From: Candidatus Heimdallarchaeota archaeon
GTDB taxonomy: Archaea; Asgardarchaeota; Heimdallarchaeia; Heimdallarchaeales; Heimdallarchaeaceae
DNA: 64,000 bases
Reading direction: 5' to 3'
Assembly (NCBI GenBank): GCA_030603365.1
Contig: JAUVXV010000002.1
Location: forward strand, 256,001-320,000
The position numbers were made by a program, and so were the translations under genes. Below are positions 42,200 to 45,844 of the stretch, piece by piece. The number at the start of each line of letters is the position of its first letter. Within the stretch, counting starts at the first letter, position 1. The notes below the pieces were generated by a model. The model was not told the origin of the DNA and ran no database searches. It saw only the letters and a list, made by a program, of their open reading frames with translations.

Positions 42200-45100
42200 A
42201 TGAATAAAAACAGAAAGAAAACAATTCTAGTATTTGGTTTGCTAGTAATTCTTCTATATAGTTTCATTGCTATACAAGATACAAGCTCTTACACTCCTAC
42301 TGAAAACGAAAACTACTCTTTCAATATAGATTTTTCAAACATCATTTTCCAAATCGAATGGTATTATCCTCTCGAATGGTGCTCTCAAACACCTTGTGTT
42401 ATAGATATTGATCTGGATGGTAATCAGGAAATTCTTCTTTCAGGTTATTGTATAGATGATGATGGAAAGCTCATATGGTATAAATCAAATTTTGCTACAG
42501 TAGCTCAATCTACTTGTAGTTATGCAGATCTCGATAACGATAATGAGCTTGAAATTGTTATAGGAATGGCAGGTATTATTCGTTGTATTGACTATCAAGG
42601 AGCATTTGAGTGGAATTATGATAGAGTGGGGTACAGTTCATTATTCAAGACTCCGTGTATAGCAGATGTGGATGGAGATTCATATTTCGAAGTTATTAGT
42701 AGTACTGATTGGGATGGATTATTCTGTATATCACACGAAGGTAATCTTGAGTGGCAGCTAGAATTTGAAGATACTGGAAAAACTGGAGAACCAGCTGTAG
42801 TTGACATTAACGGAGACGGTTTATTTGAGATAATTGTGACTCATGGTAAGAAATTATTTTGCATAGACGGTCAAGGAGATATTATCTGGGAAACTGAATT
42901 CAGCAATTATCTGACAAGTTGTTTAGGAGTAGCTAATTTTGACATCATTTCTACTAGTATGGAAATAATTGTTTCAACTGACACACATCTTCACTGCGTA
43001 AACAACTTAGGATCTATCATATGGTCAAGTCCAATAGGCTTTGGAAATTATGATAATCCAATAATTGTTGACATAGACAGCAACGGATTCATGGATATAG
43101 TTTTGTGCTCTGATGCAGGGGTGGTATACTGCTACAGTAACACAGGAACATTATGGTGGGAAACTAATATTGAGGAAACGCTCCTAGAAACTCCTACAGT
43201 GATTGACTTCAATGATGACGGATTTTTAGAAATTATTGTTAGTTCTAGAAGCAACCATATCATCATACTTGACTGCTTAGGGAATATTCTCATATCTTAT
43301 GATATGTATATCTCAGCTAGAACTCCATTACTAATCACAGATTTAGATGGGAATAATAGATTTGAAATTCTTACTATCTGCGAAGATGATAATTTGTATT
43401 GTTGGGAGCTGTTTGGTATATCAATGACAGGTTCTCAAAGAATACTAACTTATAATGGTGGAGTATCAAGAACAAGAACTATTGACAGTGATGGGGATTA
43501 CTTAGATGACACAACAGAGTTGGCAATTCAAAGTAATTCAGCAGATGCTGATACAGATGATGATCAGTTGATTGATGGATTAGAGTTCTATAATTATGGA
43601 ACCAGTATAACTTCAAATGATACTGATGATGATGATATTTCGGACAAAAATGAATTATTTATTTACAATACTGACCCATTATCAAACGATACAGATCAAG
43701 ATAATCTAACTGATTTTGAAGAAATATTCACTTATCATACTAACCCATTGCATTTTGATTCAGATAATGATGCACTACCAGATTACTGGGAAATTACGGT
43801 GGATTTAGATCCAAATCTTTTCAACAGGTATAATGATCCAGATGATGATGGGCTTAACAATTATAGTGAGTATATTTTGAATCTTAATCCTTTATCTAAT
43901 GACACGGATGATGATAAAATGCCTGATAAGTGGGAAGTAGATAATTCCTTGGATCCTTTAACAAATGACTCTTACAATGACCCTGATAGTGACAATCTTT
44001 CTAACCTCATTGAGTTCACTTATCTAACGAATCCATTCAGTAATGACACGGATGGGGATTTGTTGTCAGATTATGATGAGATTTATACTTATCCCACGAA
44101 TCCAAAATTGCCCGATACAGATTTTGATGGATTAACTGATTATGAAGAGATTATGATTTATGGAACTAGTCCAATTTTAGTAGATACGGATGGGGATTTA
44201 ATATATGATTGGTGGGAGATAATGTATGGACTGAATCCATTTGAAGATGATAGTCAAGAGGATTGGGATAATGACACATTAAGTAATTTTGAAGAGTATG
44301 TTTATGGTACATCTCCGAGCAATCCAGATACAGATGGAGATACACTTCCAGATCAATACGAAATTCTTACAGGTTTAAATCCAAACATCAATGATACAGC
44401 TCAAGATCCAGATTTTGATGGTTTGACAAATATAGAAGAATACTTCTTCAACACAAACCCTCTCTACCATGATACTGATTACGATAGGTTATCTGACGGT
44501 GTCGAAGTAAAAGTACATCATACTAACCCAAACAGCCAAGATACCGATTCTGATGGGATGAGCGATTATTATGAAGTAGATTGTAATCTAAATCCTCTAA
44601 AGAATGATGCCAATTTAGATTTGGATCAGGATGGCTTAACTAATATTGAAGAATACGCAAACGGAACAGATCCTTGGGACTGGGATACTGATGGTGATGA
44701 AATGGATGATTACTGGGAGATCACTTATCACACAAATCCACTTCAATCAAATAAGGATAAAGACAATGATTGGGATGGTCTAACTAATTATGAAGAATAT
44801 CTTCTTGGTACAAATCCTACTGAAGATGATACCGATGGAGATAGCTTATTTGATGGTTATGAAGTTGAAAATGATCTTGATCCTCTTACTTCTGATAGTC
44901 ATACTGATCCTGATGGAGATGAGCTTACCAATCTCTCTGAATACTGGTTTGATACTGACCCCAATGATTTTGACACTGATGATGATGATTTAAATGATTA
45001 TTTGGAAGTAATGATCTATAATACCAATCCACTAAGAAAAGACACGGATGGGGATAACATGAAGGATGGTTATGAAGCAAAAGCTGGTTTAGATCCCCTT

Positions 45101-45844
45101 GTTAAAGATGCTTCTGAGGATCCTGATGGAGATCATCTCACAAATATTCAAGAGATGAGGATGGACAAAGACCCACTCAAATGGGATAATTGGTTATTAC
45201 TTTATGGTCTTTATCTTCTACCTGTTTGGATATCTCTATCTCTTTGTTATGTTCTCATTCTGAAGATGTCCAACAAGTTCATTACTGCCCGTCAAAGAGG
45301 TTTTAAAACACACAAAGAACAAAGACATGCTCACAAATTTGGTTTTCAAGGTGGTAAGCAGTTTAACGCAGCTAAAGAGAGTGGTTTCTCCACCCAAGAG
45401 CAATGGTATGAAGCGATTGAATCAGGCTTCCCCACGGTTGATGAATGGTTTGAAGCTAAAGTATCTGGTTTCCATTCTCTTGATCAGAAGATGATTGCTG
45501 AAAGCATAGGTTTCATAAATTTTTATGAGTTTGTTAACACTCTAACCAAACAGCTGAGGAAGTATAAATTCAGATTGAACAAACTTTTCTCTATTCTAGT
45601 TGAGCTTGATACTACAAAGACAATCACTTTAAAGAAGCTTCAAAGATATCACAAGGAAATAGTAGATATTATCAAAGTCAATAGTGAAATACATCCTAAC
45701 TTGATTCTCTATACCAATGTACCAACAGGCGATTACAAACTAACTAAAGATCTTCGAAACGAAGTCGTACGAGGAGAGGAATTACTTAACCAAGCCCGTT
45801 TAGTTGCACAGAAATTACATAAACAAATTCGAGCATCAACTTAG
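42200..45844 (+). CDS. Single-pass surface receptor/adhesin-like protein: FG-GAP/PQQ beta-propeller, TSP type-3-like Ca-binding repeats, TM, cytoplasmic 14-aa GF repeats
   Basis: Signal peptide; DxDxDGxxEI repeats alternating with GxxxW; 24 DxDxDxxxD/NxxE units; TM WLLLYGLYLLPVWISLSLCYVLIL; about 190-aa tail. Confidence 0.82.
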   Translation: MNKNRKKTILVFGLLVILLYSFIAIQDTSSYTPTENENYSFNIDFSNIIFQIEWYYPLEWCSQTPCVIDIDLDGNQEILLSGYCIDDDGKLIWYKSNFATVAQSTCSYADLDNDNELEIVIGMAGIIRCIDYQGAFEWNYDRVGYSSLFKTPCIADVDGDSYFEVISSTDWDGLFCISHEGNLEWQLEFEDTGKTGEPAVVDINGDGLFEIIVTHGKKLFCIDGQGDIIWETEFSNYLTSCLGVANFDIISTSMEIIVSTDTHLHCVNNLGSIIWSSPIGFGNYDNPIIVDIDSNGFMDIVLCSDAGVVYCYSNTGTLWWETNIEETLLETPTVIDFNDDGFLEIIVSSRSNHIIILDCLGNILISYDMYISARTPLLITDLDGNNRFEILTICEDDNLYCWELFGISMTGSQRILTYNGGVSRTRTIDSDGDYLDDTTELAIQSNSADADTDDDQLIDGLEFYNYGTSITSNDTDDDDISDKNELFIYNTDPLSNDTDQDNLTDFEEIFTYHTNPLHFDSDNDALPDYWEITVDLDPNLFNRYNDPDDDGLNNYSEYILNLNPLSNDTDDDKMPDKWEVDNSLDPLTNDSYNDPDSDNLSNLIEFTYLTNPFSNDTDGDLLSDYDEIYTYPTNPKLPDTDFDGLTDYEEIMIYGTSPILVDTDGDLIYDWWEIMYGLNPFEDDSQEDWDNDTLSNFEEYVYGTSPSNPDTDGDTLPDQYEILTGLNPNINDTAQDPDFDGLTNIEEYFFNTNPLYHDTDYDRLSDGVEVKVHHTNPNSQDTDSDGMSDYYEVDCNLNPLKNDANLDLDQDGLTNIEEYANGTDPWDWDTDGDEMDDYWEITYHTNPLQSNKDKDNDWDGLTNYEEYLLGTNPTEDDTDGDSLFDGYEVENDLDPLTSDSHTDPDGDELTNLSEYWFDTDPNDFDTDDDDLNDYLEVMIYNTNPLRKDTDGDNMKDGYEAKAGLDPLVKDASEDPDGDHLTNIQEMRMDKDPLKWDNWLLLYGLYLLPVWISLSLCYVLILKMSNKFITARQRGFKTHKEQRHAHKFGFQGGKQFNAAKESGFSTQEQWYEAIESGFPTVDEWFEAKVSGFHSLDQKMIAESIGFINFYEFVNTLTKQLRKYKFRLNKLFSILVELDTTKTITLKKLQRYHKEIVDIIKVNSEIHPNLILYTNVPTGDYKLTKDLRNEVVRGEELLNQARLVAQKLHKQIRAST
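43484..45190 (+). repeat. Intragenic array of 24 TSP3-like DxDxD repeats
   Basis: Counted by hand from DSDGDYLDD to DPDGDHLTN, separated by TNP/LDP/LNP linkers. Confidence 0.85.

Follow-up and report, generated by a model that had tools for sequence, protein, structure and literature searches.

The window, a 64,000-nucleotide stretch of Candidatus Heimdallarchaeota DNA, contains at 42200..45844 on the + strand a whole open reading frame for a single-pass surface protein of 1214 residues. A preliminary description of this DNA had given the protein an export signal, a propeller with calcium loops, 24 TSP3 repeats, one transmembrane (TM) helix and a tail of about 190 residues. Our analyses confirmed this anatomy, with a tail of 189 residues, as well as the suspected Asgard origin, since same-genus homologues carry the labels Ca. 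Heimdallarchaeota and Ca. Heimdallarchaeaceae. Computation established the domains and fold, the number of blades, conservation and purifying selection, the absence of an effector domain and the patchy distribution described below. The outer part of the protein is of a known prokaryotic kind; for the tail, no entry was found in the libraries and literature searched.

Outer domains and the comparison with integrins

Hydropathy analysis detected only two hydrophobic segments, at residues 8-26 and about 998-1025. The first forms the core of an export signal (residues 1-26; 42200..42277, +) with a basic n-region, a pattern repeated in the orthologues, and may be either a cleaved signal peptide or an uncleaved anchor. 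The second is the TM helix (45191..45274, +), which hydropathy, alignment and a structural model all place here; it follows a conserved W-D-N-W motif and runs on to residue 1032.

Between these segments, blade repeats, modelling, and fold and sequence matches define an eight-bladed beta-propeller of the VCBS/PQQ type at about residues 46-405 (42335..43414, +). Its blade repeats are spaced 41-46 residues apart and carry seven intact DxDxD/NG-type calcium loops (at residues 69, 110, 156, 202, 291, 336 and 381) and, in the fifth blade near residue 245, an eighth that is degenerate. The loop Asp residues are invariant in an alignment of 14 sequences, and 15 Cys residues fall within residues 31-425. 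The model shows eight strand groups (predicted template modelling score 0.81), and PF13517 matches the propeller with 36.1 bits against a cut-off of 26.9. All the leading natural fold matches are eight-bladed, namely YxaL (Z 31.2), BamB (Z 30.0) and Bap1 (Z 29.2), the last giving the longest alignment (374 residues, root-mean-square deviation 3.0, 21% identity). By sequence, Vibrio cholerae Bap1 (6mlt) is the closest natural solved structure (E 4.8e-26), compared with E 0.077 for integrin alpha-6. The 76 propeller relatives lie in secreted proteases, in type IX secretion system cargo and in further bacterial and archaeal surface proteins. With VCBS/PQQ-like propellers at large (PF13517, PF13570, PF25292, including BamB and YxaL; PMC8023676) the domain has in common the calcium loop between strands A and B, the blade-end Trp and the eight blades. 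It is an ordinary prokaryotic propeller, of a kind that secreted proteins of bacteria and archaea often contain. A weak match to Binary_toxB (E 0.0018, under the cut-off) was rejected as a link to toxins, as only the common calcium-repeat motif lay behind it.

The propeller is followed by exactly 24 repeats of the bacterial TSP3 type (residues 429-997; 43484..45190, +), arranged as tandem units of 22-26 residues that each open with DxDxD(G). This stalk is strongly acidic (162 D/E versus 19 K/R) and holds 12 N-glycosylation sequons. PF18884 scored 21.8 on it, under the cut-off of 25, which other proteins of the family exceed; models for MtsD (E 5.7e-31) and CglD (E 3e-25) matched the stalk only, far below their cut-offs. 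Given these motifs, both propeller and stalk are predicted to bind calcium. The repeats were poorly modelled, with a predicted local distance difference test (pLDDT) score under 50 in a second model. No DNA-level tandem repeats were detected in the stalk, which argues against recent expansion. Protein length in the family varies from about 1090 to 1230 residues through the length of the stalk, so a spacer fits better than an allosteric relay. Shorter TSP3 arrays occur in six other proteins or fragments of this genome, the complete ones having short tails. The long DxDxDG repeat array is also common to Myxococcus CglD, MtsD and other TSP3_bac (PF18884) surface proteins. CglD and MtsD have roles in adhesion and cohesion (bioRxiv 10.1101/2023.10.19.562135); CglD is a lipoprotein, whereas the protein described here is single-pass with a folded tail.

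The preliminary description had also assigned the propeller to the FG-GAP type found in integrin alpha heads, and this assignment did not hold. Seven blades with an FG-GAP/Cage motif define integrin alpha (PMC3192720), whereas the present propeller has eight blades with the calcium loop, and a motif search of the blades matched neither the GAP nor the Cage pattern. PF01839 matched only the calcium-loop part (model positions 6-21 of 37), no integrin Pfam domain was matched in the protein, and integrin-beta (PF00362) was not found at E 0.1 in its genome, which is 89% complete. In common with integrin alpha are the DxDxDG loop between strands A and B of an N-terminal propeller, a stalk and one TM helix; in contrast, TSP3 repeats stand in place of the thigh and calf Ig-like domains, and the tail is long and folded rather than short. 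Thigh and calf domains are ruled out because the 24 TSP3-type repeats fill the whole stalk and leave no room for them. Integrin and VCBS propellers are distant members of one propeller supercluster (PMC8023676), and the sole integrin link is the calcium loop common to the VCBS supercluster. The protein is not an integrin and not an integrin ancestor.

We regard it as highly doubtful that the protein is a functional analogue of integrins, one that would relay ligand binding outside to a tail recruiting actin-linked proteins. The layout of head, stalk, TM helix and folded tail would suit such a role, as would three actin-family genes in the genome and the spectrin and plakin repeats among the generic fold matches of the tail. 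Besides the blade number, the missing Cage motif, the weak alpha-6 match and the failure to find integrin-beta in the 89% complete genome, this idea has to contend with a stalk of 570 residues that varies in length and with loss of the gene in close relatives. Moreover, integrin tails are short peptides and not folded domains. A study by Liu et al. from 2021 is reportedly cited for Asgard integrin-repeat proteins; its preprint makes no mention of integrins. Literature searches pairing Asgard with FG-GAP and with transmembrane E3 found nothing, and prior mention of such Asgard proteins is possible.

The cytoplasmic tail and its repeat

Beyond the membrane, an array of 14-residue repeats (45284..45529, +), recognised in sequence, alignment and model, places six GF dipeptides at residues 1034, 1048, 1062, 1076, 1090 and 1104, with an exact period of 14. 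When the tail was shuffled, six GF in period arose in 0 of 200,000 trials and three in period in 4 of 200,000. The tail was modelled with a pLDDT of 90.6 as a continuation of the TM helix, five short helices following the 14-residue period, and a C-terminal three-helix bundle (45521..45844, +; helices at about residues 1108-1138, 1144-1171 and 1179-1213).

Two lines of evidence place this region in the cytoplasm. The segment after the TM helix has seven K/R versus one D/E, and basic residues are found there in all nine family members; across these nine, N-glycosylation sequons number 122 in 8294 ectodomain residues versus 4 in 1630 tail residues. This charge bias and sequon depletion strongly suggest a type I-like topology with the tail inside, and the ectodomain is probably N-glycosylated. 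Together with the confident model and the retention of the tail in all complete orthologues, they uphold the claim of the preliminary description that the tail is cytoplasmic, folded and conserved.

The tail is unusual in this genome, given the rarity of long tails there: in a hydropathy screen, 135 of the 148 proteins with a signal and one TM helix have tails of at most 30 residues. Its identity to the orthologues follows that of the propeller, with 72 versus 81% for genome G026, 46 versus 53% in G025 and 35 versus 40% in G019. For three close pairs, the ratio of nonsynonymous to synonymous substitution rates (dN/dS) in the GF repeats and bundle is about 0.10-0.27, like that of the ectodomain, although these values are rough because dS is near saturation. 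The number of GF repeats (six) and the length of the bundle are constant across proteins down to 27% identity. By these sequence comparisons, the tail is under purifying selection.

This constancy bears on a reading in which the tail has no partner and is kept for folding or anchoring, as a basic, aromatic, membrane-proximal anchor that secures the large ectodomain against extraction. The tail is indeed net basic in several orthologues (30 K/R versus 21 D/E in the present protein), but copies in G037 have neutral or acidic tails, and the fixed repeat number and bundle length also count against this reading. Most propeller-TSP3-TM relatives do with tails of 5-60 residues, a fact that has been counted on both sides; since these relatives anchor with short tails, a long one is not required for anchoring. 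We consider a partner-free anchor quite unlikely.

The tail matched no Pfam or NCBIfam model and contains no catalytic or recognisable binding domain; neither a winged helix nor a RING follows the bundle, and the tail lacks Cys. These features lend no support to the outside-in signalling or cytoskeletal linkage that the preliminary description had inferred. Fold searches with the bundle returned Not5 (best, Z 12.2), GAT (10.5), MIT (about 10.5), spectrin (10.2-10.4) and also BAG, at 5-15% identity. At such scores, about 12 or less, we treat these as generic three-helix matches; those of GAT and MIT lie under the level that carries meaning for helical bundles. Foldseek gave no match to the bundle with E under 0.4. 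In the ESM Atlas, feature searches yielded no usable match for either the tail or a long GF array, and the best match by shape reached a template modelling score of 0.45. Co-folding of two tail copies scored 0.00, which is no evidence either way. An exhaustive HMMER search with the tail found 58 proteins, compared with one in a word-index profile search and none near the tail's length in a plain word-index search.

From 552 distinct units we derived the repeat as G-F/Y-x4-acidic-aromatic-x2-A-x3, for which neither Pfam nor NCBIfam holds a model. Heimdallarchaeia proteins carry from 1 to about 30 copies, which lie after TM helices and before helical regions ending in a RING-H2-like finger or a winged-helix-like domain; the winged-helix type of cassette ends in a conserved terminal helix. 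None of the 76 propeller relatives carries GF repeats. The repeat is a mobile module. The TSP3-stalk single-pass proteins of Heimdallarchaeia (L058, L059, L072-L084) have in common a variable head, a TSP3 stalk, one TM helix and often GF repeats with a helical region, and we found no published family with such a stalk and a helical, winged-helix or RING tail. The present subfamily differs in ending after one three-helix bundle, with no winged helix, terminal helix or RING, and in its confinement to one genus. Its tail resembles a Heimdallarchaeia cassette in shortened form; the longer versions of that cassette finish with a winged helix and terminal helix, or with a RING.

Several other proteins were observed alongside. 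Many large single-pass proteins in G015, G016 and G031 (L072-L079, L082-L084) join different heads to a common cytoplasmic winged-helix-like domain and terminal helix. In the closed genome G016, L081:1881-5822 encodes 1313 residues with a propeller, TSP3 stalk, TM helix, helical region, double zinc ribbon and RING-like finger, a layout that resembles a receptor-type ubiquitin ligase. In G022, L087:1448-4936 encodes a second protein of 1162 residues with a propeller, 24 TSP3-type motifs, a TM helix and three GF repeats; the bundle profile missed its helical tail, so that the layout is the same and the tail different or very diverged. By eye, contig C1 of the genome that holds the window encodes a 581-residue signal-plus-TM protein of receptor-like layout with an NYN/PIN nuclease-like cytoplasmic end (491112-492857, -) and a Dna2-like nuclease-helicase with a C-terminal RING-like finger (230709-233735, +).

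Could the protein belong to a membrane ubiquitin pathway as a decoy or co-receptor without an effector, one that clusters with RING relatives on ligand binding, or is their adaptor or substrate, and is sorted through ubiquitin-ESCRT? In about ten Asgard-type proteins a C-terminal RING-H2-like finger follows the GF repeats, and the L081 chain joins a propeller, TSP3 stalk and TM helix to a RING. In the protein's own genome a ubiquitin gene neighbours an E1-like gene, ESCRT-III is encoded twice, and about a dozen RING-like proteins occur, of which several have TM helices. GAT and MIT are among the fold matches of the bundle, but with scores under the meaningful level. Unlike receptor-type TM-RING ligases and relatives such as L081, the protein itself has no cytoplasmic RING, nor a winged helix. 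The only GF-repeat proteins of its genome are this one and the remnant at 33486-34118, and the winged-helix cassette, matched 28 times in G016 and 13 times in G015, was not found there. We therefore judge a ubiquitin-pathway role unlikely.

Distribution, paralogue and neighbourhood

The full layout is found in G039, G025, G022, G019, G020 and G033; G037 has four copies of it, and in G026 and G040 it is divided between two contigs. The tail is retained in every complete orthologue (nine other genomes of the genus). The bundle profile matched 10 of the 24 other genomes of the genus and nothing convincing in the rest of the 83 genomes of the class. Three weak matches outside the genus (E 1.9e-4 or worse) were rejected as unrelated soluble proteins of 450 residues. 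Absence of the tail from most homologues, which the preliminary description had held to count against its reading, was thus seen in most of the more distant propeller homologues and not among complete orthologues.

The gene usually lies just upstream of a HAD hydrolase gene. Its slot contains nothing in G017 and G027 and, in G018, just a 165-bp 3' remnant; these genomes are as close as some carriers. A 5'-truncated paralogue (33486..34118, +) lies about 8 kb upstream of 42200 and encodes half a TM helix and the whole tail, GF repeats and bundle included, with no ectodomain; it is 33% identical to the tail of the intact protein. TSP3 repeats and a complete TM helix survive in its G026 relative (L066), and the paralogue is probably a remnant. 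It forms an open frame of 210 codons that opens right after the upstream gene's stop, and its first start codons lie downstream of the half TM helix, so it could give a soluble product made of the tail alone. The empty or decayed slot in three relatives and the truncated paralogue mark the gene as accessory.

The neighbouring coiled-coil and HAD genes remain next to each other where the gene is absent, and we therefore rejected a functional link between the gene and this pair as unsupported. The coiled-coil gene (35710-37404, +), conserved in the genus upstream of the HAD slot, encodes 564 residues, comprising a small alpha/beta domain at the N-terminus, which looks roadblock-like by eye, and about 450 residues of coiled coil. 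Just upstream of the paralogue, a multi-pass membrane gene (32800-33485, +) is split by a frameshift near 33045-33070 that reflects either decay or sequencing error; the orthologue in G022 is intact (224 residues). N-anchored beta-helix (NosD-like) surface proteins are clustered at 24917-31123 and 37474-40745 (+); two multi-pass membrane genes that resemble each other, at 38781 and 40848, alternate with the beta-helix genes. The region immediately upstream of 42200-45844 differs between relatives.

Proposed role and its meaning

With middling confidence, we propose that one Heimdallarchaeaceae genus has in this accessory protein a calcium-dependent adhesin or ligand-binding protein, with a calcium-stiffened stalk and a non-catalytic tail that docks on a cytoplasmic partner. 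Once exported, its calcium-stabilised propeller would bind a polymer or surface outside the cell (glycan or protein), while the TSP3 repeats would hold the propeller off the membrane in which the TM helix anchors it. The tail would act as a helical scaffold, with the GF repeats as a rigid spacer before the bundle, and docking of the tail on its partner may retain or position the adhesin or govern its turnover. We infer the adhesive role by analogy to Bap1, CglD and MtsD; the tail partner is putative. The eight-bladed propeller of Bap1 binds biofilm exopolysaccharide directly (PMC10102183). Bap1/RbmC and the present protein both have an eight-bladed propeller, but Bap1 is a secreted protein into which a beta-prism is inserted and which lacks the TSP3 stalk, TM helix and tail, whereas the present protein has no insertion between blades and ends in a TM helix and tail.

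Several observations weigh against this proposal. The likeness to Bap1 extends to fold and family only (21% identity), and the eight-bladed BamB and YxaL perform different jobs. GF repeats are also present in an NYN protein of Thermococcus and in proteins whose N-termini are hydrophobic and signal-like, and in view of such varied carriers the repeat itself is no sign of signalling. In hhalign comparisons, the bundle aligned weakly, though in register, with the winged-helix group (42%, E 2.6e-4) and showed no homology to the RING group, so the resemblance to a shortened cassette rests mainly on the common repeat and its position.

A broader reading, which we hold with low confidence, is that Heimdallarchaeia build single-pass receptors from a kit of variable head, TSP3 stalk, TM helix, GF spacer, bundle and optional winged helix or RING, and that the present protein is an effector-less member coupling adhesion to ubiquitin-ESCRT or actin. 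Presence in part of one genus and loss in close relatives give the protein limited weight as a core or ancestral feature, and the tempting but wrong reading as an integrin ancestor is removed. The 189-residue tail is a small, well-folded and selected cytoplasmic domain that could be expressed to serve as bait, and with it a repeat of 14 residues, so far uncatalogued, is defined. If the kit reading were true, signalling tied to adhesion would have a convergent prokaryotic version among the close relatives of eukaryotes. The way in which Asgard archaea attach to surfaces and partners bears on eukaryote origins, as does any wiring of that attachment to actin or ubiquitin-ESCRT.

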